A stretch of 64,000 nt of DNA from Thermoanaerobaculia bacterium (GCA_017998715.1 JAGOCP010000002.1:5429-69428); one strand, 5' to 3'; counted from the stretch's first letter, positions 1 to 63,115 are shown. Made by a program: numbers and translations. Notes: generated by a model from the sequence alone, not told the origin.

Positions 1-1515
1 GAAGACGTGGCAGAAGAAATGACCGTAGTAGAGCTTCTTCTCGATCTGCGCGTCGATCTCGGGCGGCAGCCGCTCGATCCAGTCCCGGTCGTTGCGCCGG
101 AGCGCGATGTCGAGGGCGACGATGTCCTCGACATCGCGGGAGTGGACGGCGCGGTAGCGCACCGCCGCCCCCGCCACCGCGAAGCGGTGAAGGAAGGCGG
201 CCTTGCCCTCCGCAGGGGTGCACTCGAAGACGTCGCCGGTCTCGGACGGAAAGATGGTGGCGAGATAGGCACGCGCCTCGGCGATGCCGGCTCCGCCCAT
301 CTTGATCAGCAGGTGATGCTCGAACCGGTCACGGAACGCGTTCATCCGCGCCGGCAGGTGCTGGGGGGCGAGCTGGGCGACCGCTTGGGCGACGCGGTCG
401 GACACCGCGGCGCCGAGGCCGAGCCGCTCGGTCATCGCATCGACCTTCGCCTTGGCCGCGAAGAACGCGGGCATCCGGTCCGTGCCGGCCTTCTCGATGA
501 ACAGGAAGGTGTCCTTGCCGTATTTCGCCGCGACATCGTAGGCGTCGCGATGGATGTATTCGCCGGCGATTGGCAGATGCTCGAACGTCGCCAGCATGTG
601 GCGGCGGATCCCGGTCAGTTCTTCCGGATCGTTGCTGCCGACATAGAAGACCGTGGTCTCCTTCTCGGCCTCGAAGGTGTCGAGCCGCACCGCGAAGACC
701 GCGAGCTTGCCGGCGCATCCCGCTGCCTCGCGCAGCCGGCGCGGATCGGCGTTGAACCGGGCCGGGGTCTCGGCATCGACGTCGCGCACATGCCGCGCAT
801 ACTCGCGATCCGACGCCCAGGCCTCGGTCGGCTGGGGCGCGGGCAGGTCGCCGCGCTCGACCCGGGCGAGGATCTCCTCGGGATCGTTGCCGAGCGGCAG
901 CCCGAGATTGTTGACGAGCGCGACCGAGCCGTCCTCGCGCACTTCGGCGAACAGGCTCATCTCGCTGTAGGCGGGTCCGCGCTGGATCAGGGCGCCGCCG
1001 GAGTTGTTGCAGATGCCCCCCAACACCGAGGCGCCGATGCAGGAGGAGCCGATCACCGAATGCGGCTCGCGCCCGAGCGGGCGCAGGGCCTTCTCCAGGG
1101 CGTCAAGCGTCGCGCCGGGCAGGCAGACGACCTGCCGCCCCTCCTCGATGAGGTGGACGCCCTTCAGCCGGCGCAGGCTCACGAGGACGATCTCCCGGTC
1201 GTAGTCGTCGCCCCAGGGTGTCGACCCGCCCGTCAGGCCGGTATTCGCGGCCTGGAAGATCACGACCCGCCCGGCTGCAATCGCCGCCTGCAGGACGCGC
1301 CACTGCTCGACGAGACTGCCGGGGCGCACCACCGCGGCGACCCGGCCGCTGCCGTAGCGAAAGCCGCGCGTATAGCCACGGGTGTCGCGGGCGGAGGTCA
1401 GCACGTGGCGCGTGCCGACGATCCGGCCGAGCTCTGCGATCAAGTCCCCGCGCGAGGCTTCGGGCGCGGGCTGGGGCGGGAGTCCGGCAGCCGGACCACG
1501 GGCGGGGATCGTCAT
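1..1515 (-). CDS. dld: FAD-binding D-lactate dehydrogenase, quinone-dependent (Dld family); about 505 codons present, 3' end (C-terminus) lies beyond the window start
   Basis: Translating the reverse complement from the ATG at 1515 gives MTIPARGP...VIGSSCIGASVLGGICNNSGGALIQRGPAYSEMSLF...GCAGKLAVFAVRLDTFEAEKE...HRFAVAGAAVRYRAVH, which is collinear with E. coli Dld along its whole length. The 525-aa plus-strand ORF at 7-1584 is its antisense shadow. Confidence 0.85.
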   Translation of the reverse strand, partial: MTIPARGPAAGLPPQPAPEASRGDLIAELGRIVGTRHVLTSARDTRGYTRGFRYGSGRVAAVVRPGSLVEQWRVLQAAIAAGRVVIFQAANTGLTGGSTPWGDDYDREIVLVSLRRLKGVHLIEEGRQVVCLPGATLDALEKALRPLGREPHSVIGSSCIGASVLGGICNNSGGALIQRGPAYSEMSLFAEVREDGSVALVNNLGLPLGNDPEEILARVERGDLPAPQPTEAWASDREYARHVRDVDAETPARFNADPRRLREAAGCAGKLAVFAVRLDTFEAEKETTVFYVGSNDPEELTGIRRHMLATFEHLPIAGEYIHRDAYDVAAKYGKDTFLFIEKAGTDRMPAFFAAKAKVDAMTERLGLGAAVSDRVAQAVAQLAPQHLPARMNAFRDRFEHHLLIKMGGAGIAEARAYLATIFPSETGDVFECTPAEGKAAFLHRFAVAGAAVRYRAVHSRDVEDIVALDIALRRNDRDWIERLPPEIDAQIEKKLYYGHFFCHVF

Positions 1516-3089: not shown

Positions 3090-3491
3090 TCAGTGGTTTC
3101 CCAACCGCTCGAACTGCCGGCTCCACTCCAACTGGAACCCTTCCAGCAGGGTGTCGAGCTGCAGGTCCACTTGCTGGCGTCCGTCGAGGATCGCCTCCAC
3201 GATCTCCGGCGCTAACAGCGTGAGCCGCAGGATGCCGCTGACGTACGACGGTGCGAGCCGCTCGGCCTGGGCGAGGTCCTCGATCGTCGCATGAACGCCC
3301 TCATCGAGCATCTTCCGCCACCGGAACGCCCGCGCGAGCGCCTTCACCATGGCATTGTCGATCCGCGGCCGTGGCGCCCACTCCGCACCGTCCGGCGTCA
3401 CCACCCGCTTCCGCCCGCCGCGCTTCCTGAATGTCAGCGGGATGTGGACGGTGATCGTCTCGCCGTCGGCCGAGATCGTGGCCCGCTTCAC
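3090..3491 (-). CDS. Conserved hypothetical protein co-transcribed downstream of the serine recombinase
   Basis: 133-aa ORF with realistic composition (MKRATISADGETITVHIPL...SYVSGILRLTLLAPEIVEAILDG). It overlaps the recombinase stop by 4 nt. Confidence 0.5.
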   Translation of the reverse strand: MKRATISADGETITVHIPLTFRKRGGRKRVVTPDGAEWAPRPRIDNAMVKALARAFRWRKMLDEGVHATIEDLAQAERLAPSYVSGILRLTLLAPEIVEAILDGRQQVDLQLDTLLEGFQLEWSRQFERLGNH

Positions 3492-4795
3492 GCTGCTGCC
3501 CTCCTGCTGCCCGCGACCTCACGGACCAGCCCGGCGAGCCCGTTCGGCCTCAGCCTGACCTCGACGCCGTTCATCCGCACCTCGACCCGTTCGACCAGCA
3601 ACTGCACGATCCGCGCCTGCTCGGCCGGGAACAGCTCGTCCCACAGCGGATCGAGCTCGGTGAGAGCCGTCCGCGCCTCGTCTTCGGTGATGTCGTCGGC
3701 TTCGGCCCGCGCCGCGCGCCATGTGCCTACGATGATCTCCGGCTGCCGGAAGATGCCGCGCAGCTGGTCGATCACCGCGGCCTCGATCTCCGCTGCCGGC
3801 ACCCGACCAACCGGACACGCGTCGGGCCCGCGCTTCAACACGTCCTGGCTGACGTAGTAGCGGTAGAGCCGGTTGCCCTTGCGCGTGTGCGTTGGCGACA
3901 TCGCCGCCCCGCTCGGCCCGAAGATCAGCCCCCTCAGCAGCGCCGGCGTCTGTGCCCGGGTGTTCGCCGAACGGGTGCGGACGTTCTCGGCGAGGATCGC
4001 ATGCACCTTGTCCCACAGATCCTGATCGATGATCGCCGCGTGTTCGCCCGGATGCGCCGTCCCCTTGTGCACCGCGAGGCCGAGGTAGGTACGGTTGTTG
4101 AGCAGCTTATAGAGGTAGCCCTTGTCGACCAGCTTGCCGCGCTTGGTGCGAACGGCCTCCCGCCGCAGTTCCCGAGCCAGCACCGTCGCAGAGCCGATGC
4201 TGACGAACCGTTCGAAGATGCTGCGCACGATCGCCGCATCGGGCTCGGACACCACGAGCTTCCGGTCCTTCGCCACGTAGCCGAGCGGGACGTTGCCGCC
4301 CATGAACATGCCCTTCTGTCGCGACGCCCTGATCTTGTCGCGGATGCGCTCGGCGGTGACCTCGCGCTCGAACTGGGCGAAGGAGAGCAGGATGTTGAGC
4401 GTGAGCCGCCCCATCGAGGTCGTGGTGTTGAACGACTGGGTGACCGACACGAAGGTGACGCCGGCGCGGTCGAAGACCTCGACCAGCTTTGAGAAGTCCA
4501 TCAGCGAGCGGCTGAGCCGGTCGATCTTGTAGACCACGACGACGTCGATCAGCCCCTCCTCGATGTCGGCGAGCAGCCGCTTCAGCGCCGGCCGCTCCAG
4601 CGTGCCGCCGGAGAAGCCGCCGTCGTCGTAGGGCTCGCGGATCAGCGCCCATCCCTCGGAGCGCTGGCTGGCGACATACGCCTCGCAGGCCTCGCGCTGG
4701 GCGTGCAGGCTGTTGAACTCCTGCTCCAGCCCCTCCTCGCTGGACTTCCGGGTGTAGACCGCGCAGCGGAGCTTGCGGGTGACGGGCTTCGTCAT
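3488..4795 (-). CDS. Large serine recombinase (resolvase/invertase catalytic domain + recombinase domain + zinc ribbon)
   Basis: MTKPVTRKLRCAVYTRKSSEEGLEQEFNSLHAQREACEAYV is a typical serine-recombinase N-terminus with the catalytic Ser. The long C-terminal recombinase/zinc-ribbon region follows. The ATG at 4795 overlaps the upstream gene stop (ATGA). Confidence 0.85.
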   Translation of the reverse strand: MTKPVTRKLRCAVYTRKSSEEGLEQEFNSLHAQREACEAYVASQRSEGWALIREPYDDGGFSGGTLERPALKRLLADIEEGLIDVVVVYKIDRLSRSLMDFSKLVEVFDRAGVTFVSVTQSFNTTTSMGRLTLNILLSFAQFEREVTAERIRDKIRASRQKGMFMGGNVPLGYVAKDRKLVVSEPDAAIVRSIFERFVSIGSATVLARELRREAVRTKRGKLVDKGYLYKLLNNRTYLGLAVHKGTAHPGEHAAIIDQDLWDKVHAILAENVRTRSANTRAQTPALLRGLIFGPSGAAMSPTHTRKGNRLYRYYVSQDVLKRGPDACPVGRVPAAEIEAAVIDQLRGIFRQPEIIVGTWRAARAEADDITEDEARTALTELDPLWDELFPAEQARIVQLLVERVEVRMNGVEVRLRPNGLAGLVREVAGSRRAAA

Positions 4796-5238
4796 GATGC
4801 ACCGCCCTGCCGCTTGAGGCCCCAGAAGACGAGCCCGTTCCACCTCGTGCCGGTGATCTCGCGGGCGATCGCGGAGAGCGAGCGGTAGGGGCGGCCCTGC
4901 CACTCGTAGCCGTCGGCAAGCACCGTGACCGTGTGCTCGACGCCGCGGTACTCGCGGACCAGCCGGGTCCCGGCGACCGGGCGCGCGTCATGCCGGATGC
5001 GGCGGGTGGCGACGTTGTCGCTGTCGTACTGCTCGCCGAGGATCTCCAGCCGCCGGAGCGTCTCCGGCTTCAGCCCGCCGTAGGCAAGCTCCTGGATGCG
5101 GTAGGCGATGCGATTTTCGAGGTGGCGGCGGTTGAACGGTGGCGGCTCGGTCTCGAACAGCGCGCGCCATTGCGCCTTCAGCTCCGGCATCGGCATGGTC
5201 TTCAGCGCGGCGACGCGCGCGGGGATCGGGTCGGTCAT
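4792..5238 (-). CDS. DUF2924-like protein, the usual partner of large serine recombinases in integrative elements
   Basis: MTDPIPARVAALKTMPMPELKAQWRALFETEPPPFNRRHLENRIAYRIQELAYGGL matches the DUF2924 signature as I recall it. Confidence 0.65.
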   Translation of the reverse strand: MTDPIPARVAALKTMPMPELKAQWRALFETEPPPFNRRHLENRIAYRIQELAYGGLKPETLRRLEILGEQYDSDNVATRRIRHDARPVAGTRLVREYRGVEHTVTVLADGYEWQGRPYRSLSAIAREITGTRWNGLVFWGLKRQGGAS

Positions 5239-11458: not shown

Positions 11459-12216
11459 TGCTGGACTTCAATCCCCGGCCATCGATGGCGGACCGCGTCA
11501 ACACGCTGGTCGATGCCGCGCTCGAGGCCGAGCGGGCGGCCACACCGCCGCGCGACTATCTCGGCGGCTCGCGCCTCGGGCACGCCTGCGAGCGGGCGCT
11601 GCAGTTCGAGTTCACCGCGACGCCGAAGGACGAGGGCGCCGACTTCGCCGGCCAGACCCTGCGCATCTTCGCCACCGGCCACGCCCTCGAAGACCTGGCG
11701 ATCCTCTGGCTGCGCGCCGCCGGGCTCGATCTCTATACCCGTAAGGCCGACGGCGGGCAGTTCGGCTTCTCGGTCGCCGGCGGCCGCGTCCGCGGACACG
11801 TCGACGGCGTCATCGCCGCCGCACCCGCCGCGCTCGGTCTCCGGGTTCCCGCCCTCTGGGAATGCAAGACCATGAACGCGAAGAACTGGCGCGAGACCGT
11901 CTCCAAGGGCATGCGCGTAGCCAAACCGGTCTACGCCGCGCAGATCGCGCTCTATCAGGCCTACATGGAGCCGACGGTCCCGGGCATTTCCGTCGCCCCG
12001 GCGCTCTTCACCGCGATCAACAAGGACACCGCCGAGCTCCACCACGAGCTCGTGCCCTTCGACGCCGCCCTCGCGCAGCGCATGTCCGATCGCGCCGTGC
12101 GCATCCTGCGGGCGACCGACGCGGGCGAGCTGCTGCCCCGCATCGCCGCCACCCGCGACTTCCTCGACTGCCGCTTCTGCCCCTGGGCCGAGCGCTGCTG
12201 GAGCCTGCCTCGGTGA
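11458..12216 (+). CDS. PD-(D/E)XK nuclease of the Cas4/RecB-like family (phage exonuclease)
   Basis: The catalytic region HVDGVI...LWECKT gives a D...ExK pattern, and the Cys pattern C...CxxCx5C (GHAC ... CRFCPWAERC) is characteristic of Cas4-type Fe-S nucleases. Confidence 0.7.
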   Translation: MLDFNPRPSMADRVNTLVDAALEAERAATPPRDYLGGSRLGHACERALQFEFTATPKDEGADFAGQTLRIFATGHALEDLAILWLRAAGLDLYTRKADGGQFGFSVAGGRVRGHVDGVIAAAPAALGLRVPALWECKTMNAKNWRETVSKGMRVAKPVYAAQIALYQAYMEPTVPGISVAPALFTAINKDTAELHHELVPFDAALAQRMSDRAVRILRATDAGELLPRIAATRDFLDCRFCPWAERCWSLPR

Positions 12217-14528
12217 CCGACGACACCATCGTCCACTTCAACCCGTGGCGCGACTTCAACGATGCGCCCATCGACGATGATCCGTTCGGCATCGAGCCCG
12301 ACGCCGGCCAGATCGCCACCTTCCTCGACGTGGTGTTCGGGTATTGCGACGGGCTGATCCCGGTGCGCGGCTTCGTCGACAAGGGTCAGGGCAAGGACGG
12401 CAAGCCGCACAACGTCTGGATCGACGCCGACGCCAGCGCCCCGGAAAAGCTCGCCACCTTCGCCACCTGGGCCTGGCGCGAGGGCGCCGCGGTCTATGTG
12501 ATCCCCGGCACCGTCGCGGAGCCCGGCCAGGCGAAGTCGGCCGACGTGCTGCAGATGCAGGCGGTCGTCGTCGATCTCGACGCCGGCGACATCGCCGCCA
12601 AGCTCGACCACCTCGTCCGGCATCTCGGCCGCCCGACGCTCGTCATCGAGAGCGGCGGGCGCACGCCCGAGGGCGATCTCAAGCTGCATCTCTGGTGGAA
12701 GCTCACCGAGCCGGCCGAGGGCGCGGACCTGGCGCGGCTCTGCCGGCTGCGCGGCGAGATCGCGCTGAAGGTCGGCGGCGACACGCATTTCCGCTCGGCG
12801 CACCAGCCGATCCGCGTCGCGGGCAGCGTCTACCACAAGGGCGGCTTCCAGCGCATCGTCGAGATTCGCGAGCACAATTCCGTCGAGCTCGAGCTCGACG
12901 ACCTCGCCGAGCTCGTCGCCGAGATGCCGCCGCTCGCAGGCCTGGGCGCCGGGTCCGCCGCCGACGCTGGCGAGAAGCCGTCGCTCGACGCGGTGCTCAC
13001 CACCCCGGTCCACGCCGGCGGTGGCGACGACTGGACCCGCTTCGCCGGCGCCAGCGCCGCCATCGGCCACTACATCCGCCAGGTCCACGAGGGACGGATC
13101 ACCCCCGACGACGGCTGGGAAGCGATCCGCGGCTACAATGCCGCCATGCTGCGTCCGAGCTGGCCGGAGGAGCGGCTGAAGGCCGAGGCCGACCGGCTCT
13201 GGGGCAAGCACATCGAGAAGAACGGGCCGCCCCTTCTCCGCGCGCCAGCCAGCGCGACGTCCGCCGCTATGCCCGCCTTCACCCTCGGCGCGCTGCTCGA
13301 CGACGTGACGCCGATGCCCGAGGACATCATCGCGCCCCGCGTGCTGACCCCGGGCGGGCTCCTCGTGCTCGGCGGCGCGCCGAAGGTCGGCAAGAGCGAC
13401 TTCCTGATCAGCTGGCTCGTGCACATGGCCGCGGGCGTGCCCTTCCTCGGCTTCACCCCGCCGCGGCCGCTGCGGGTGTTCTATCTGCAGGCGGAGATCC
13501 AGTACCACTACCTCCGCGAACGGTTGCAGGCGATCCGGCTCGACGCACGCGTCATTGCCGCCGCACGCGACACCTTCGTCGCCACGCCGAAGCTGAAGCT
13601 GCTCCTCGACGGTCAGGGCTGCGCCCAGGCCGCCGCCGCAATCGCCGAGGCCTTCCCCGAGGCGCCCGTCGACATTCTCTGCATCGACCCGATCCGCAAC
13701 GTCTTCGACGGCGGCCCGGACGGCGCCGGCGAGAACGACAACGCGGCGATGATGTTCTTCCTCAAGGACCGGGTCGAGGTTCTGCGCGAGGCGGTGAACC
13801 CGGACTGCGGCGTGATCCTCGCCCACCACACCAAGAAGCTCGGCAAGCAGCAGGTGAAGGACGACCCGTTCCTCGCGCTCTCCGGCGCCAGCGCGCTCCG
13901 CGGCTTCTACACCTCCGGGCTGATCATGCACCGGCCCGACGAGGAGAGGAGCGAGCGGCGGCTGGAGATCGAGCTCCGCAACGGGCCGGCGCTCGCGTCG
14001 AAGCTGATCGACAAGGTAGATGGGCGCTGGGTCGAGCTCGACCGCGACCATGAGCGACTGGTGCGCCAGGACGTCGGCGCCCGGCTCGATGCCGAGCGCT
14101 CGCGCAAGCACGACGTCATCCTTCAGACGATCTTCTCGGAGGCACAGGAAGGCCGGCTCTACCTCGGCCTGCAGTTCGCCGAGAAGTTCGAGAACACCGG
14201 CGGGCTCGGCAGCAAGCACACCATACGGGAGCGGCTGGGTGTGCTGGCGACGAACGGCTTCGTGAAGTTCCGCCGCGATGCGCGCGACTTCGGATACCCG
14301 GTGACCCGCTCGCATTTCGGCTACCTCTGCGTCGAGGGCATGATCTTCGGAGCGCCTGTCGAGATCGTCGACCCCGACACCGGCGAGATCACCGAAGACG
14401 TCCGTCCGGTGCACCCCAGCCACTACAAATGCTCGCAGTCGGGCGCCTGCCTCGACGTCGAAAACCCGTCGGTCTGGGTCTATCCCGCCGGCTCCGAAGA
14501 CGACCTCACTCATATGAGTGAGGCCTGA
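12213..14528 (+). CDS. Replicative primase-helicase (N-terminal primase/polymerase-like domain + AAA_25/DnaB-like ATPase)
   Basis: Walker A LVLGGAPKVGKSDFLISWL and downstream RecA-fold motifs. GTG start overlaps the upstream stop (GTGA). Large N-terminal domain is typical of phage prim-pol/RepA-like initiators. Confidence 0.75.
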   Translation: MTDDTIVHFNPWRDFNDAPIDDDPFGIEPDAGQIATFLDVVFGYCDGLIPVRGFVDKGQGKDGKPHNVWIDADASAPEKLATFATWAWREGAAVYVIPGTVAEPGQAKSADVLQMQAVVVDLDAGDIAAKLDHLVRHLGRPTLVIESGGRTPEGDLKLHLWWKLTEPAEGADLARLCRLRGEIALKVGGDTHFRSAHQPIRVAGSVYHKGGFQRIVEIREHNSVELELDDLAELVAEMPPLAGLGAGSAADAGEKPSLDAVLTTPVHAGGGDDWTRFAGASAAIGHYIRQVHEGRITPDDGWEAIRGYNAAMLRPSWPEERLKAEADRLWGKHIEKNGPPLLRAPASATSAAMPAFTLGALLDDVTPMPEDIIAPRVLTPGGLLVLGGAPKVGKSDFLISWLVHMAAGVPFLGFTPPRPLRVFYLQAEIQYHYLRERLQAIRLDARVIAAARDTFVATPKLKLLLDGQGCAQAAAAIAEAFPEAPVDILCIDPIRNVFDGGPDGAGENDNAAMMFFLKDRVEVLREAVNPDCGVILAHHTKKLGKQQVKDDPFLALSGASALRGFYTSGLIMHRPDEERSERRLEIELRNGPALASKLIDKVDGRWVELDRDHERLVRQDVGARLDAERSRKHDVILQTIFSEAQEGRLYLGLQFAEKFENTGGLGSKHTIRERLGVLATNGFVKFRRDARDFGYPVTRSHFGYLCVEGMIFGAPVEIVDPDTGEITEDVRPVHPSHYKCSQSGACLDVENPSVWVYPAGSEDDLTHMSEA

Positions 14529-14618
14529 ACTCATATGAGTGCGGCATGCAGACTCCAGCGAAATCAATGGCTTGCGTATGAGCATGAGTGAGGTGCCGAC
14601 ATCATGCCCTCACTCATG
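14504..14618. repeat. Cluster of CCTCACTCAT / ATGAGTGAGG palindromic repeats at the 3' end of and just after the primase-helicase gene
   Basis: A 20-bp perfect palindrome at 14504-14523, a 12-bp palindrome ACTCATATGAGT at 14529-14540, and an 11-bp inverted repeat CATGAGTGAGG (14583-14593) / CCTCACTCATG (14608-14618). All are seen directly. Confidence 0.7.
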
Positions 14619-14861
14619 TCGGATGATGTTTTCAACAGAAAAAACAAAGGCTTGCAGCGAAAATATGATGATAGGTGCTCTATCCCCCATACTACGTATG
14701 GGGGTGCCACCCTGAAGGGTTGGCACCCGATCCCATACGTAACGGGGTTCTCTGCCGGGCTCCCCGAGCGTCCGGAAGAACGATCAGGCGACGACGGCCA
14801 GTACCGCCAAGCACCGGGCCGCCGTCGCCCTCCACCACCGACAGCCTCCAAGGAGACCATC
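14619..14861. promoter_or_regulatory. AT-rich structured non-coding segment (candidate origin DNA-unwinding element and/or promoter for the downstream resolvase operon)
   Basis: Local GC is about 50% against roughly 67% around it. There is an A-rich tract (cagaaaaaacaaagg...gaaaatatgatgatagg), a hairpin CCCCCATAC-tac-GTATGGGGG (14684-14704), an imperfect inverted repeat GTGCCACCC/GGGTTGGCAC (14705-14726) and a second TACGTA-centred motif. Confidence 0.35.
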
Positions 14862-15398
14862 ATGGCTGCAGCGACTCTGACTCTGCACGACGGCGACGCA
14901 AGGCCCGCCTCGCCCACCGCCCTGACGGCGGCGCCGACAATCCTCGCGCTGGATCTCGGCACCACCACCGGCTGGGCGCTCCGGGCGCACGACGGCCTGA
15001 TCACCAGCGGCACCGTGTCGTTCCGCCCGAGTCGCTACGACGGCGGCGGCATGCGCTACCTGCGCTTCACCAACTGGCTCACCGAGCTTGACCAGCTGAG
15101 CGGCCCGATCGCCGCGATCTGGTTCGAGGAGGTCCGCCGGCACGCCGGGACCGACGCCGCGCACGTCTATGGGGGACTGATGGCGACGCTGACCAGCTGG
15201 GCCGAGCTGCGCGGCGTGCCCTACCAGGGCGTCCCGGTCGGCACGATCAAGATCCACGCCACGGGCAAGGGCAATGCGCCGAAGGAGGCAATGATTGCCG
15301 CCGCCCGCTCCCGCGGCTTCAGCCCGAGCGATGACAACGAGGCGGACGCGATCGCCATCCTGCTCTGGGCCATCGAGACCCGCGGAGGTGTGCGGTGA
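14862..15398 (+). CDS. RuvC-like Holliday junction resolvase (phage type)
   Basis: ILALDLGTTTGWAL is the N-terminal RuvC-fold motif. Acidic catalytic residues appear later (EADAIAILLWA). Strong RBS AAGGAG 8 nt upstream of the ATG. Confidence 0.75.
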   Translation: MAAATLTLHDGDARPASPTALTAAPTILALDLGTTTGWALRAHDGLITSGTVSFRPSRYDGGGMRYLRFTNWLTELDQLSGPIAAIWFEEVRRHAGTDAAHVYGGLMATLTSWAELRGVPYQGVPVGTIKIHATGKGNAPKEAMIAAARSRGFSPSDDNEADAIAILLWAIETRGGVR

Positions 15399-17646: not shown

Positions 17647-18100
17647 TCGTGAGATCCCGGGCGCGGAGATTTCGCTTCATGCTCGTTCGACGTAACGCGC
17701 TCCCCCTGTGCGGAGCAAGTCGAGGTGATCGGGGTCGCGTAGCCGAACATGGCCCACTGATTGGGGCCGTTCTGCGAGGGAAACTTCGATCGGCTGTCAA
17801 GACAAATCGACTTCGTGAGACATCAAGAGTTGAGACACCGAGAGGGATTCACTTCCGCGGCGGCAATCGTTAGAAACACATCATGCTCGGAAAGTGCGGG
17901 CGCGGCGAAGGACGAGGGGGACAGGTCGGAGATCGGTTTGCAGATGCCCTTGCCGACCAACCGGATGAAGCAGAACGCGAGCATCGGCCTCTAAGCCACT
18001 GATTGTATGGGTCCCTCCTAGCGGGAACCGTATGCGGGAGCGCCAAGCGCGCAACTTCGCTAGCGACAGCCGCGAATTTTTGGGAAGCCACCCGGCACCC

Positions 18101-18234
18101 GGAATCCACCTGCTCGCCTGATATCGACGACAAAACAAAGACTTCTCCCCTTCCGGGGGTGGCTTCCGCTGGACCCCTGAAGGAGTCCACGGGACCCAGT
18201 GGAATCCAGTGACGGAATCCACTCTCGGAATCCA
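18101..18234. repeat. GGAATCCAC direct repeats: one copy at 18101 and three tandem 13-bp units at 18201, 18214 and 18227, ending 30 bp upstream of the ParB-methyltransferase gene
   Basis: ggaatccagtgac / ggaatccactctc / ggaatccaccggc are seen directly, plus ggaatccacc at 18101 and a one-mismatch copy ggagtccac at 18182. Confidence 0.65.
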
Positions 18235-27120: not shown

Positions 27121-28104
27121 ATGCGATCCTGGTACGCGATCCGCGCCCGCGCCGAGGGCGCGGAAGTCTCGATCTATGACGAGATCGGTGCCTACGGCGT
27201 CTCGGCGAAGAGCTTCCTCGACGAGCTCGGCGCGCTGCCCGACGACGGCGCGCTGACCCTGCGGCTGAACAGCCCGGGCGGCTCGGTCTTCGACGCGGTG
27301 GCGATCTACAACGCCCTGAAGCGCCACGCCGGCCCGGTCAGCGTCTGGATCGACGGCATCGCCGCCTCGGCCGCCTCCTACGTCGCCATGGCCGGCGACG
27401 AGGTGGTGATGCCGGAGAACGCCTTCCTGATGATCCACGACCCCTCGGGCGTGGTGTACGGGACGGCGGACGACATGCGGGCGATGGCCGAGGCGCTCGA
27501 CAAGATCAAGGGCAGCCTCGTCGCCGGCTACGTCGCGAAATCCGGCGGCGCCGAGGACGACATCGCCGCGCTGATGGCGAAGGAGACCTGGCTCGCCGCC
27601 GCGGAGGCGGTCGAGCTCGGCTTCGCCGACCGGCTTGCCGAGCCGGTGCGGATCGCCGCGCGGTTCGACATCGCGCGGTTCCGCAACGCGCCTCCGGCAC
27701 TGGTCGACGCCACGGCCGAGATCGGCGAGGCCGAGGACGACACTGCCGATGATGAGGCCGATCCGCCGGCGGGCGATGCCGAGGACGACGGCGCGGGCAT
27801 GGACGCGGTCGATCCCCCGCCGCCCGAAGCACGCGACCCGGTCTCGGCCTCCGCCGCGATCCGCGCCGAGGCGCTCGCGCATGCCGCCGCGGTGATCGAC
27901 CTTTGTGCGTTGGCCGGCCTCCCGCTGCAGGCGCGGCGGTTCTTGGAGGCCGGCGCCAGCCTCGACGAGGTGCGCGCGGCGCTACTGGCCGCAAGGGCCG
28001 ATGCCACCCCGGAGGTCACCGCCCTCCATCCGCAACCGGGCCGCTCCGCCGACGCCCGGCCCTGGGGCGAGGTGATCGCCCGCACCTTCAAGCCGAGAGG
28101 ATAA
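27121..28104 (+). CDS. Head maturation protease, ClpP/S49 family, with a C-terminal scaffold-like acidic/Ala-rich region
   Basis: LRLNSPGGSVFDAVAIYNALKRH...IDGIAASAASYVAMAGDEVVMPENAFLMIHDP is a ClpP-like Ser protease core. Confidence 0.85.
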   Translation: MRSWYAIRARAEGAEVSIYDEIGAYGVSAKSFLDELGALPDDGALTLRLNSPGGSVFDAVAIYNALKRHAGPVSVWIDGIAASAASYVAMAGDEVVMPENAFLMIHDPSGVVYGTADDMRAMAEALDKIKGSLVAGYVAKSGGAEDDIAALMAKETWLAAAEAVELGFADRLAEPVRIAARFDIARFRNAPPALVDATAEIGEAEDDTADDEADPPAGDAEDDGAGMDAVDPPPPEARDPVSASAAIRAEALAHAAAVIDLCALAGLPLQARRFLEAGASLDEVRAALLAARADATPEVTALHPQPGRSADARPWGEVIARTFKPRG

Positions 28105-53333: not shown

Positions 53334-55204
53334 GCCTGTGCCTCCGGTTGATCCGGGGAGAGAGGCCCCGGTCCCCCCGAAGCTGCGGGCTCCGGAGCGA
53401 TCAGCAACGCGCGCAAGGCGTTGAGCACCACCGCCACGTCGATCCCTTCCTGGATGAGGGCGCCCTGCACCGGCGCCAGCAGCCCGACCGCCGCCGCCAC
53501 CATGCCGACGCCGGAAAGGCCGAGCCCGACCGCCACGCTTTGCAGCGCGATCCGCCGCGTGCGGCGTGCGATCTCGATGCCGGTGCCGATCCGGTCGAGG
53601 CGATCGACCAACAGCACGACGTCCGCGGCCTCGGCCGAGGCCGCGGCGCCGCGGGCACCCATCGCGACGCCGACGTCGGCGATGGCGAGGGCCGGCGCGT
53701 CGTTGACGCCGTCGCCCAGCATCATCACCGGCCCGCGCGTGCGCTCGTCGCGCACGACCTCTGCCTTCTGCTCCGGCCCGAGGCCGGCGTGGATCGCGTC
53801 GAGGCCGAGGCCGCGCGTGACCCGTTCCGCCACCTCGACCCGGTCGCCGGTCGCGAGGACGATGCGGTCGATCCCGTCACGCCGCAGCCGGCCGATCAGC
53901 GCCGCCGCGTCGTCCCGGATCGGGTCGGCCATCACGAGGCGCCCGGCGAGCCGTCCGTCGACCATCACCCCGACGAACACCGCGCCGGCCGCGTCCGCGC
54001 TCCCCCCTTCGGCGCCGCCGGAGACAAGGCCCGGCCCGCCGATGACGATCGCGCGGCCTTCGACCCGGCCGGCCACGCCCTCGCCCGGCCGCTCCACCAC
54101 ATCGCTTGGCAGCGGGAGCACGAGCCCGCGCGCCCGCGCTGCCGTCACGATCGCCTCCGCGACCGGGTGGGTCGACGCCTGGTCGAGGGCGGCGGCGAGG
54201 CGCAGCAGCTCGTCTTGCTGCAGGTCGCCCTCGGTCTCGATCGCGACGATCCGCGGGCGGCCGTCGGTCAGGGTCCCGGTCTTGTCGAGGATCATCGTCC
54301 TGACCTGCGCCATCGCCTCGAGCGGCTTCGCCCCCTTGACCAGCACGCCGAAACGGGCGGCCCGCGACACGCCGGCGACGAGCGCGACCGGCACGGCGAG
54401 GATCAGCGGGCACGGCGTCGCCACCACCAGCACCGCCACGGCCCGGACGGGATCGCCGCTCGCCCCCCAGGCGACCCCGGCAAGCAGCAGCGTCACTGCG
54501 AGAAAGCCGAGCGACCAGCGGTCGGCGAGCCGCGCCATCGGCGCCTTCGACCGCTGCGCCTGCGCGACGAGCCGGACGATGCCGGCGTAGGTGCTTTCCT
54601 CCGCCCGGCGGGTGGCGACGAGATCGAAGGGTCCGGCGGCGTTGGTCCCCCCGCTCATCGCCTCGGCGCCTTCCGTCAGCCGGACCGGAAGGGATTCCCC
54701 GGTCAGCGCTGACGCATCGACGAAGGCCGTCGGAGAGGCGATCCGGCCGTCGACCGGGACGATCTCGCCCTGACGGATCAGCAGCCGGTCGCCGGGGGCG
54801 ACGGCATCGAGCGCAACCTCCTCGAGGCCGCCGTCCCGAACCCGGGTCGCGCTCCGCGGGACGCGGGAGAGCAGGCCGGTCATCTCGCGGCGCGCGCGTC
54901 CGACGGCGAAGTCCTCGAGAAAGGTCCCGCCGGAATACATGAGAGCGACGACCGCCGCCGCGAGCGACTCGCCGACGAGGAGCGCTGCGGTCATCGACAG
55001 CGCGGCGACGATGTCGAGGCCGACCTCGCCGCGCCGGAGGCTGCGGACGATCTCCACGACGAGCCCCGCGAGCACTGGCAGAACGCCCGCGGCCCAGGCG
55101 ATGCGCGCCGCGCCGGCCGCACCCGCGACGGCCAGCCCGAGGCCGATCGCGAGCCCGGCCAGGGCGATAGCGAGGAGGATTGTCCCGTAGCGGTCCTTCA
55201 CGTC
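53330..55204 (-). CDS. P1B-type heavy-metal-translocating ATPase lacking an N-terminal metal-binding domain
   Basis: DKTGTLT phosphorylation motif, GDGVNDAPAL hinge, TGES actuator motif (ASALTGESLPV), PC-containing TM helix (ATPCPLILAVP). Start assigned to the GTG at 55204 (start of the VKDRYGTILL... frame) because no in-frame ATG is available. Confidence 0.8.
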   Translation of the reverse strand, partial: DVKDRYGTILLAIALAGLAIGLGLAVAGAAGAARIAWAAGVLPVLAGLVVEIVRSLRRGEVGLDIVAALSMTAALLVGESLAAAVVALMYSGGTFLEDFAVGRARREMTGLLSRVPRSATRVRDGGLEEVALDAVAPGDRLLIRQGEIVPVDGRIASPTAFVDASALTGESLPVRLTEGAEAMSGGTNAAGPFDLVATRRAEESTYAGIVRLVAQAQRSKAPMARLADRWSLGFLAVTLLLAGVAWGASGDPVRAVAVLVVATPCPLILAVPVALVAGVSRAARFGVLVKGAKPLEAMAQVRTMILDKTGTLTDGRPRIVAIETEGDLQQDELLRLAAALDQASTHPVAEAIVTAARARGLVLPLPSDVVERPGEGVAGRVEGRAIVIGGPGLVSGGAEGGSADAAGAVFVGVMVDGRLAGRLVMADPIRDDAAALIGRLRRDGIDRIVLATGDRVEVAERVTRGLGLDAIHAGLGPEQKAEVVRDERTRGPVMMLGDGVNDAPALAIADVGVAMGARGAAASAEAADVVLLVDRLDRIGTGIEIARRTRRIALQSVAVGLGLSGVGMVAAAVGLLAPVQGALIQEGIDVAVVLNALRALLIAPEPAASGGPGPLSPDQPEAQA

Positions 55205-62059: not shown

Positions 62060-62278
62060 GTCGGGCGCAGAAAGCCACCGGCGGCCGCGGGAATACCCTG
62101 GTGCGATTTCGGCAACGGGCTGAGGGGCGGTGCTCGTCGCCAGCCCATGACTGCCGAACCGAATTGACAAGGTGCTCGCGCCTGAACAGTGTCTCGAGAT
62201 GGGGATCCGCGATCTCCCCACGAGGCGACAGCCGAAGCTCGCGTTCCGCCCACCACCGACCATTTCGGAGGAACGCAT

Positions 62279-63115
62279 ATGCCCTCGCCCGATGCCATTG
62301 CCTGCGACAAGCTCGCAAAGCTGCTCGGCACGCCCCGCTGCCCGACGATCCTCGATAACCGCGCCGACGCGGTCCGGGCCGACGATCCGCGATTGCTGCC
62401 GGGGGCGAGAGCGGTGACCGACGCCGACATGGCGCCTGAGGCACTCGCCCGGCTGATCGGCTCGCTTTCGGGTCCGGTCGTCGTCGCCTGCACCGAGGGA
62501 CACGCGCGCAGCCAATGGCTCGCCGCGCTCCTCCGCAGTCGCGGCCTTCACGCCGAGTATCTGGAAGACGGTTATGCCGGCTGGCGCGCGGACGGCCTGC
62601 CGCTCGTCGATCCCGCGAAGATCACCTCGCGGGATGGGAAAGGCCTCAGCGTCTGGGTGACCCGATCGCGGCCGAAGGTCGACCGCATCGCCTGCCCATG
62701 GCTGATCCGCCGCTTCGTGGACCCACGCGCCGTGATCCTTTACGTGGCGACGGCGGAGGTCGCTGGCGTTGCGCAGTTCTGCGGCGGGATGCCCTTCGAC
62801 GTCGAGGACACGTTCTGGAGCCACCGCGGCGAACTCTGCACCTTCGACGTCATGCTGATGGAATTCGGGCTCTCGACGCCGGCGCTCGACCGCCTCTCCG
62901 CCATCGTCCGCGGCGCCGACACCGCGCGGCCCGAGCTGGCACCCGAGGCGCCCGGCCTGCTGGCCGCGTCGCTCGGCCTGTCACGGATGTACTCCGACGA
63001 CCTCGAACAGCTCGATGCCGGCATGGCCCTTTACGACGCGTTCTACCGCTGGTGCCGCGACGCGACGGACGAGACGCACAACTGGCCGACGAACCGGCTG
63101 GGAGGGGCGGCATGA
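62279..63115 (+). CDS. Rhodanese-like domain (CX5R loop) fused to a ChrB C-terminal domain, a chromate-resistance regulator-like protein
   Basis: CTEGHAR rhodanese/Cdc25-type loop, and DRIACPWLIRRFVDP which is characteristic of the ChrB C-domain. RBS GGAGG. Confidence 0.65.
   Translation: MPSPDAIACDKLAKLLGTPRCPTILDNRADAVRADDPRLLPGARAVTDADMAPEALARLIGSLSGPVVVACTEGHARSQWLAALLRSRGLHAEYLEDGYAGWRADGLPLVDPAKITSRDGKGLSVWVTRSRPKVDRIACPWLIRRFVDPRAVILYVATAEVAGVAQFCGGMPFDVEDTFWSHRGELCTFDVMLMEFGLSTPALDRLSAIVRGADTARPELAPEAPGLLAASLGLSRMYSDDLEQLDAGMALYDAFYRWCRDATDETHNWPTNRLGGAA

Follow-up and report, generated by a model that had tools for sequence, protein, structure and literature searches.

A candidate iteron-type replication origin beside a fused primase-helicase gene in a widespread family of alphaproteobacterial prophages

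In P4 (alpha protein, ori/crr) and in lambda (O protein, ori-lambda), a dedicated domain of the initiator, in P4 a C-terminal winged helix, binds to repeated sites, and these sites are located in or beside the initiator gene, next to an AT-rich stretch. Among lambdoid phages, the DNA-binding domain of the initiator and its iterons are exchanged together. In Staphylococcus aureus pathogenicity islands (SaPIs), Rep and PriRep5 bind iterons directly downstream of rep, with an AT-rich centre, via a C-terminal winged helix; primase and helicase are fused in SaPI5, and the iterons of SaPIs and of phage-inducible chromosomal islands (PICIs) are found in both orientations (PMC9371898). The origin of pRN1 is a stem-loop just downstream of the primase-helicase gene, and the authors of that study noted similar layouts in phages (PMC4234260). 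The oriV of the incompatibility group Q (IncQ) plasmid RSF1010 comprises iterons, an AT-rich stretch, and two single-strand initiation (ssi) hairpins that are priming sites on complementary strands, and it operates with RepA, RepB', and RepC (PMC8567376). Here, a 64-kb stretch of DNA (GCA_017998715.1, JAGOCP010000002.1:5429-69428; hereafter the window, which denotes the whole stretch of 64,000 nucleotides) is examined. The window is a prophage with an overall GC content of 70.1%, and the subject of the analysis is the slot between its gene for a primase-helicase and its gene for a RuvC-like Holliday-junction resolvase (Table 1). Judged from its sequence, the part of this slot that holds a cluster of short repeats and an AT-rich core (14504-14683) is probably an iteron-type prophage replication origin served by the adjacent primase-helicase. 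A literature search found no prior description of the origin of this prophage family.

A total of five copies of a 10-bp unit, ATGAGTGAGG or its inverse CCTCACTCAT, are present in the window, all of them within 115 bp (14504-14618), with three in direct (14514, 14535, and 14584) and two in inverted (14504 and 14608) orientation. The 9-mer core of the unit, CTCACTCAT, occurs in the same interval as four exact copies and one copy with a single mismatch; the remainder of the 64 kb has zero exact copies and five scattered matches with one mismatch. Repeats 1 and 2 overlap the terminal codons (DLTHMSEA) of the primase-helicase gene, the stop codon of which is at 14526-14528, such that the last ten or so codons of the gene are the translation of the first repeats; in many relatives the left arm of repeat 1 reads CCTAACTCAT, a synonymous change. 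The initial annotation of this DNA had described the 20-bp palindrome formed by repeats 1 and 2, a 12-bp palindrome at 14529-14540 (ACTCATATGAGT), and an 11-bp inverted repeat with a 14-nt spacer (arms at 14583-14593 and 14608-14618), and all three were recovered here, the second as part of an imperfect second copy with its centre 21 bp past the first. The description of all of these elements as centred on CATATG holds for the first two, but the third pair is everted. Relatives carry GAGTTAGG-TC-CCTAACTC at the position of repeats 4 and 5. In the window and in viral contigs the motif does not behave as a generic genomic repeat, and the spread over many unrelated loci that the initial annotation had named as contrary evidence was not seen.

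Table 1. Coordinates of the features discussed, in window positions unless residues are given.
Feature	Position	Strand	Remarks
Repeats 1 and 2	14504-14523	both	CCTCACTCAT (14504-14513) and inverse ATGAGTGAGG (14514-14523); together the 20-bp perfect palindrome CCTCACTCATATGAGTGAGG
Repeat 3	14535-14544	-	ATGAGTGCGG, one mismatch; 21 bp after repeat 2; right half of imperfect palindrome 14529-14544
Repeats 4 and 5	14584-14617	both	ATGAGTGAGG (14584-14593) and CCTCACTCAT (14608-14617); everted pair, 14 nt between
IHF consensus site	14562-14574	+	AATCAATGGCTTG, matching WATCARNNNNTTR; between repeats 3 and 4
AT-rich core, candidate DNA-unwinding element	14619-14683		65 bp, 36.9% GC; contains A-tract
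Conserved structured module	14684-14747	+	CCCCCATAC (14684-14692), TAC, GTATGGGGG (14696-14704), inner hairpin 14704-14726, then CCCATACGTA (14732-14741)
Hairpin	14787-14829	-	opposite 5' leader of resolvase gene
Promoter-like bipartite motif	14874-14901	-	TTGCGT (14896-14901), 16 nt, CAGAGT (14874-14879); inside first resolvase codons
Primase-helicase gene	12213-14528	+	771 amino acids; three-part single polypeptide
Archaeo-eukaryotic-type primase domain and helix bundle	residues ~28-337		structure model
AAA_25/RepA-type helicase	residues ~362-544		Pfam AAA_25, E=2e-23
C-terminal domain, winged-helix-like core	residues ~610-771; core ~629-707 (nt 14097-14333)		structure model
RuvC-like Holliday-junction resolvase gene	14862-15398	+	PHROG 159, E=6e-30; ribosome-binding site AAGGAGA at 14850-14856
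Replication/recombination block		+	Sak4-like protein, SNF2-type helicase, Cas4-like exonuclease, primase-helicase, RuvC-like resolvase, DUF6378, DUF6362
Serine integrase/large serine recombinase	3488-4903	-	PHROG integrase, E=2e-109; marks left part of prophage

The length of the palindromes does not itself distinguish the locus. Three palindromes of at least 20 bp are present in the window, and palindrome length was rejected as a statistic because palindromes of 20 bp arise in 32% of block shuffles. The signal resides in the clustered local repetition of the unit and in its conservation in relatives. The two other long perfect palindromes, CGTCGAGCTCGAGCTCGACG at 12881-12900 (within the primase-helicase gene) and the 24-mer CCGCGGCCTCGGCCGAGGCCGCGG at 53623-53646, are GC-rich and fall within the range of the shuffles.

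Relatives of the primase-helicase were identified in at least 497 species genomes in a scan that used one genome per species, and 80 loci were kept for comparison. All of the kept loci are from Alphaproteobacteria, chiefly Paracoccaceae and Hyphomicrobiales, and genera in the prophage family include Paracoccus, Rhodobacter, Amaricoccus, Devosia, and Mesorhizobium. Clustered short repeats follow the gene at the same position in all 80 loci, and their sequence is specific to one of at least eight classes (ATGAGTGAGG, GTCGAAGTCG, CGTCCTC, AACTCCTC, CTCTGTCAT, CCTCATC, CCAGTTT.., and CAAGTTGGGAA), with the protein 70-77% identical throughout. As in the window, copies in both orientations are seen in other classes. 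In classes where the repeats overlap the gene, the protein ends in the translation of whichever repeat comes first; in classes where they do not, it ends in ...VWVYPEG. The exact 20-mer palindrome of the window was found in 23 contigs of IMG/VR, in each case (23 of 23) at the 3' end of the homologous gene, despite an identity of only about 75% between the encoded proteins. At 87% identity, L025 is the closest relative; it has three direct copies of the ATGAGTGAGG type at offsets of 0, +21, and about +69, as in the window, but lacks the palindromes, indicating that it is the 10-bp unit that matters and not its symmetry.

A comparison of near-identical prophages that differ in repeat class is particularly informative. 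Three loci of other classes (L088, L096, and L083) are at least about 90% identical in DNA sequence to a fourth locus (L030) over nearly all of the ~6 kb upstream and 1.8 kb downstream, with one or two short dips or gaps elsewhere in the flanks. All three share a consistent divergent patch that extends from about -540 to about +240 nt around the stop codon, comprising the last ~180 codons (the C-terminal domain) and the repeat region, and the left edge of this patch coincides with the domain boundary in three independent class swaps. Likewise, among 94 proteins the divergence between classes is concentrated in residues 620-771, where identity in windows of 30 residues is mostly 0.89-0.97 within classes (down to 0.83 near residues 701-740) and 0.5-0.7 between classes. 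The class-specific residues map to the predicted recognition helix (GLGSK-H/Y/F/D-TIR...) and wing. By analogy with the SaPI pri-rep-ori segment, P4, lambda, and IncQ plasmids, such joint exchange of a C-terminal domain and repeats is what characterises an initiator with its iterons. It should be noted that the same mosaic comparison applied to distant pairs (classes CCAGTTT.. and CAAGTTGGGAA, as well as L025, each against L030) gave a uniform divergence of 70-80%, so that co-variation of the primase domain with the downstream hairpin module could not be resolved in those pairs.

The start of the primase-helicase gene is fixed by homologues of 771-773 amino acids that cover 100% of the protein, and the label primase-helicase is correct. 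PHROG 239 (DNA primase/helicase) matches residues 378-764, sources name relatives of the protein "helicase RepA family", and the database label for the family is just "AAA family ATPase". Searches of the PDB by sequence with the N- and C-terminal domains returned nothing useful, and structure prediction alone was informative. A model of residues 1-345 (pLDDT 74) matches the primase domain of the cyanophage S-2L PrimPol (6zp9_A; E=1e-7, target-normalised TM 0.84), the RSF1010 primase RepB' over its full length (3h20; Foldseek E=1.6e-7), and the RepB' catalytic domain in complex with ssiA DNA (3h25_A; E=4e-6). In a model of the final 188 residues (pLDDT 78), three helices are followed by a beta-hairpin and then a beta-rich tail, and the model's top Foldseek matches are all winged-helix regulators (Fur, Zur, PerR, MarR, and PadR types), although these matches are weak (best E=0.057). 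On the basis of this model, the primase-helicase likely carries a DNA-binding domain at its C-terminus.

More distant relatives were also observed. In Acidithiobacillus phage AcaML1 (L001) the gene order is the same and the primase is only 24% identical by alignment. The equivalent intergenic slot of that phage (8954-9093) contains GTCTGACGG three times in direct and twice in inverted orientation, flanking an AT-rich patch and a run of GCGCGCGCGC; from its sequence, this slot is probably the phage's own origin. Among the phage records searched, only Wolbachia WO prophages (e.g., HQ906665.1 and KX522565.1) resembled the helicase and C-terminal part at the protein level (36-52% identity), and their homologue is annotated as RepA or as an ATPase.

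Two further features accompany the repeats. A consensus site for integration host factor (IHF) separates the two groups of repeats in the window; the consensus has 2 matches in 64 kb against 0.14 expected, and 172 of 190 repeat regions of the family have it between the repeat groups, whatever the repeat class. The other exact match in the window (AATCAGTGGCTTA, 17992-18004, minus strand) is in the gap ahead of an open reading frame (ORF) that starts at 18209. The repeats are followed by the AT-rich core, within which is a second, weaker IHF-like site (14642-14654, one mismatch) and at the far side of which is a degenerate repeat-like copy (ATGATGATAGGTGC, 14665-14678). A class-specific copy of the repeat precedes the hairpin module in every repeat class. 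The initial annotation had reported about 240 bp of AT-enriched DNA at around 50% GC, but the composition is not uniform: GC content is 46.5% over 14540-14683 and falls to its low value in the 65-bp core, and it is 66.9% over 14684-14861.

The placement of iterons of a phage origin beside the primase-helicase, as first proposed in the initial annotation, is supported by the same position of the repeats in hundreds of relatives, by their class-specific sequence, by their exchange with the C-terminal domain, and by the IHF site and AT-rich stretch. Given this anatomy, the domain folds, and a layout conserved across the family, initiation could be envisaged as follows. The C-terminal domain would bind the iterons in both orientations, and host IHF would bend the DNA between the two iteron groups. 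The resulting complex would melt the adjacent AT-rich core, after which the helicase part of the protein would load itself and the primase part would make the first primers.

Several considerations weigh against this proposal. The repeats could equally be operators that control the downstream operon, in keeping with the repeat copy that every class has just ahead of the hairpin module. Because they abut, the C-terminal domain and the repeats could have been inherited together in part through physical linkage, which is hard to separate fully from co-adaptation. The winged-helix assignment draws on weak structural matches, and neither the N- nor the C-terminal domain is recognised by Pfam (E values up to 10) or NCBIfam. 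The IHF site is a match to a consensus and is a predicted site in this sense. The cumulative GC skew of the window has a broad and shallow minimum at 12-20 kb, a weak signal that lends weak support to an origin near 14.6 kb, and the origin could lie elsewhere in the prophage.

To the right of the repeats, between the AT-rich core and the resolvase gene, are two hairpin modules that, by sequence comparison, are separate conserved elements. The first (14684-14747) contains three copies of one ~9-mer, which can pair in two alternative ways about an inner hairpin. What the initial annotation had placed here as two TACGTA-based hairpins is instead these three copies, in a module that is itself single-copy. 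At least 120 viral contigs have an exact copy of an 18-nt core of the module, one per contig. In 98 of 99 loci the module comes directly after the gene of this family, and it is retained where the downstream gene is not RuvC. In classes CCAGTTT.. and CAAGTTGGGAA, an element of the same design but different spelling is present. The module belongs to the conserved backbone, outside the exchangeable patch. Its RNA folding z-scores are -4.6 (plus strand) and -5.7 (minus strand), covariation is modest (8 pairs with double changes versus 3.3 +/- 1.1 in shuffles), and one-sided changes favour the plus strand (28 G.U versus 8 A.C). A strand test by folding energy showed no preference, with 12 sequences favouring the plus strand and 24 the minus strand and a mean difference of 0.8 kcal/mol. 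A search of 14450-14900 against Rfam 15 gave no match that reaches its gathering score. The best permissive match, R1162 antisense RNA (RF00043; 21.8 bits versus a gathering score of 55, E=0.17), is on the plus strand, which is the wrong strand, and was treated as a chance match. The chances that this module is a structured replicon signal (a priming or loading site) or an RNA element are about equal.

The second module, a hairpin at 14787-14829 that the initial annotation had not listed, differs in its behaviour. The minus strand is the more stable one in 34 of 34 unique family sequences, by a mean of 12 kcal/mol (-38.4 versus -24.5 kcal/mol in the window), and the minus-strand alignment has a 12-bp stem in which nearly all substitutions are G.U and 4 pairs have changed on both sides. 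This hairpin is also part of the conserved backbone and not of the exchangeable cassette. In L081, where an ORF has been inserted, it stays beside the RuvC ribosome-binding site, and some members of the family lack it. The resolvase start codon and ribosome-binding site are kept in relatives. Inside the first resolvase codons is a promoter-like motif that points left; on the plus strand it reads ACT CTG, 18 nt, GCA AGG, with a spacing that is fixed in an otherwise variable N-terminal peptide and with codons that should be rare at 70% GC, which is an expectation of the authors. The motif and the hairpin co-occur (both present in 133 cases, neither in 17, and 10 discordant). Although the motif does not pass a generic sigma-70 scan, its sequence suggests that it would start a leftward transcript near the RuvC start codon that runs through the hairpin. 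The most probable reading of the hairpin is as the stem of a candidate antisense RNA covering the resolvase ribosome-binding site and start codon, and it is probably not part of the origin.

The ORF inserted between the hairpin module and the resolvase gene in two loci (L081 and L026) encodes about 110 amino acids and is cysteine-rich (CxxC ... CPxHH) in a manner resembling zinc-binding proteins. Sites for GANTC were noted at 14551-14555, 14873-14877, and 14879-14883, two of which fall within the conserved motif ACTCTG at the start of the resolvase gene. GANTC is the target of the CcrM methylase in Alphaproteobacteria.

These observations bear on how much of the interval is replicative. The initial annotation had portrayed a hairpin-dense unwinding element, but the hairpins are in DNA of 67% GC, in the backbone rather than the cassette, and on opposite strands, and the right-hand one travels with the resolvase start. 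It is conceivable, at a little under even odds, that only 14504-14683 is replicative and that 14684-14861 is machinery for gene expression, with a plus-strand leader or processing-site RNA of the resolvase operon and a minus-strand antisense RNA (stem 14787-14829) that masks the resolvase ribosome-binding site and start. Such a division would accommodate the folding of the two modules on opposite strands, the near-exclusive G.U substitutions on the minus strand of the right-hand hairpin, the tracking of the resolvase ribosome-binding site by that hairpin past an inserted ORF and its absence from several members without the motif, the fixed spacing of the motif itself, and the position of both modules outside the exchangeable cassette. 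It has to contend with generic scans that give no promoter and no terminator, with the lack of any Rfam family, and with the module at 14684-14747, which follows the iterons whatever the downstream gene and whose invariance suggests recognition by a sequence-specific protein more than RNA pairing. Moreover, G.T is also the best-tolerated mismatch in DNA hairpins, so that the strand asymmetry is no proof of RNA. Overall, expression control and a role in replication are about as likely as each other for the right half of the interval.

If 14504-14683 is indeed an origin, its nearest working analogue is that of the SaPIs and PICIs with PriRep5. As in those elements, primase and helicase are fused, short iterons in both orientations come right after the gene together with an AT-rich stretch, and specificity differs between otherwise related elements; the C-terminal winged helix is here a candidate based on a structure model. 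Unlike the SaPI Reps, which are AAA+ helicases of the superfamily 3 (SF3) or MCM type with 3'-5' polarity, the ATPase of the primase-helicase is of the AAA_25, RepA type. The iterons are 10 bp long rather than 5-6 bp, and the first two are inside the last codons of the gene. The element further differs from SaPIs in having an IHF consensus that is conserved and a hairpin module that is invariant, and in being a full prophage of Alphaproteobacteria and not a satellite.

A second set of similarities is with the IncQ plasmids RSF1010 and R1162. The N-terminus has the fold of the RepB' primase (3h20 and 3h25_A) and the helicase is of the RepA type; in addition, the order of elements in oriV is the one seen here: the iterons come first, the AT-rich stretch second, and last the conserved hairpins, which form on complementary strands. 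As single-stranded DNA, the first hairpin of the structured module (14684-14704) has the geometry of IncQ ssiA, with a 6-nt tail and a 21-nt hairpin of 9 bp and a 3-nt loop, a geometry that was checked on the oriV of a real IncQ1 plasmid (L213); the sites are without homology at the level of sequence. In the presence of a RepB'-like primase, this likeness may be considered a lead. It could be imagined, as a rather speculative extension by analogy, that the locus is a one-protein version of the IncQ system, in which one polypeptide unites a RepB'-like primase with a RepA-like helicase and an iteron-binding domain, and in which the modules at 14684-14747 (plus strand) and 14787-14829 (minus strand) would be primase-specific single-strand initiation sites. 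Were this true, priming of both leading strands would be sequence-specific, as in the strand-displacement replication of RSF1010. The differences are nevertheless considerable. IncQ plasmids use three separate proteins in place of one polypeptide, and their iterons (about 3.5 direct copies of 20-22 bp, as read in the same IncQ1 plasmid) are bound by a separate RepC, in contrast to the 10-bp iterons of mixed orientation here; no RepC-like gene is adjacent to the primase-helicase. The ssi sites of the IncQ1 plasmid face each other, whereas the two hairpins here would prime divergently, and the right-hand one goes with the resolvase gene and is absent from part of the family.

Multifunctional primase-helicases are also known from pRN1, the ORF904 protein of which combines a prim-pol, a helicase, and a winged helix, and from the Bordetella phages BPP-1 and BIP-1. 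The structured module described here is placed similarly to the essential structured element of pRN1, which lies within ~170 bp downstream of the gene and is conserved in structure across relatives. However, pRN1 has an SF3 helicase and no described iterons, and its stem-loop of ~100 nt is variable in sequence, whereas the module of ~64 nt is almost invariant. With respect to the other systems outlined above, the primase of P4 alpha is Toprim/DnaG-like and its helicase is of the SF3 type, while lambda O is without helicase or primase activity and recruits host DnaB through P, and the lambda iterons are located in the middle of the gene. The present element is thus set apart by the AAA_25 family of its helicase, the fusion of three activities, the conserved IHF site, and the invariant hairpin module.

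As an alternative to an origin, the repeats might be transcriptional operators, such that the C-terminal domain of the primase-helicase or another phage factor would switch the resolvase operon with IHF as an architectural cofactor of the promoter. In every class one repeat copy lies ~10-25 nt ahead of the hairpin module, at the position that a -10 region would take, and many members have a TTG / TAGGTG-like pair in front of the module; IHF sites are, in general, common at regulated phage promoters. On the other hand, neither strand has a sigma-70-type promoter that passes the scan, and the putative -10 is not conserved across classes. Sites at the 3' end of, or inside, the regulator's own gene would be unusual, and the lysogeny switch region is ~8 kb upstream, beside the integrase. 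Further, the bound protein would be a primase-helicase, and proteins of this kind are known for binding origins (PMC9371898). A purely regulatory role is consequently regarded as unlikely, and it is compatible with an origin in that both functions can coexist.

That the whole interval acts as RNA, either as an intergenic terminator or attenuator or as a small RNA with the palindromes as RNA hairpins, is very improbable, despite the abundance of inverted repeats and the better folding of several segments relative to shuffled controls. The palindromes of the first two elements lack a loop, and the unit is also found as direct repeats in L025, which fits protein sites and not RNA stems; the repeat sequence changes class together with the protein domain; and, as noted above, no Rfam match was obtained. 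The structured-RNA alternative offered in the initial annotation probably holds for part of the interval. Its other alternative, a composite of terminator and promoter for the resolvase operon, was not borne out by a scan of both strands of 14300-15000, which returned 0 promoter-like and 0 terminator-like sites with an E. coli-type consensus that weak alphaproteobacterial promoters may escape. Least probable of all is a site of recombination or packaging (an attP core, pac, cos, or resolvase target), since, although inverted repeats and an IHF site are general features of lambda attP and of some cos sites and a resolvase gene is adjacent, attP, pac, and cos are rejected on position (the element is intact in mid-prophage where an integrated attP would be split, the integrase is a serine recombinase 10 kb away, and the terminase is 8 kb downstream) and the repeats co-vary with the primase-helicase and not with the resolvase, which is conserved across classes.

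The iterons and primase-helicase described here provide a candidate origin and initiator for a prophage family that is present in at least 497 alphaproteobacterial species and is widespread yet unannotated. The proposed mechanism is a classical one, and the result fills a gap without overturning existing views. The interchangeable cassettes of C-terminal domain and repeats would represent natural matched pairs of initiator and origin, which could yield compatible vectors for these bacteria and material for studies of how specificity in DNA recognition evolves. In addition, by combining a RepB'-like primase and a RepA-like helicase in one protein, the family ties phage replication modules to those of IncQ plasmids.

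The primase-helicase gene is one of several in a replication and recombination block on the plus strand (Table 1), and the prophage in the window also carries terminase, portal, major capsid, and tail genes. The lysogeny module is ~8-10 kb from the origin candidate. Two RNA predictions were recorded elsewhere in the window. An 82-nt tRNA-Gly (GCC) was called by ARAGORN at 27603-27684 (plus strand), in the head-gene block between the genes for portal and major capsid; a long ORF overlaps this tRNA, which may be spurious. A match to the Rfam chrB-a RNA (RF03078), with 63 bits against a gathering score of 43.9, is located at 62196-62281 (plus strand), outside the prophage core.

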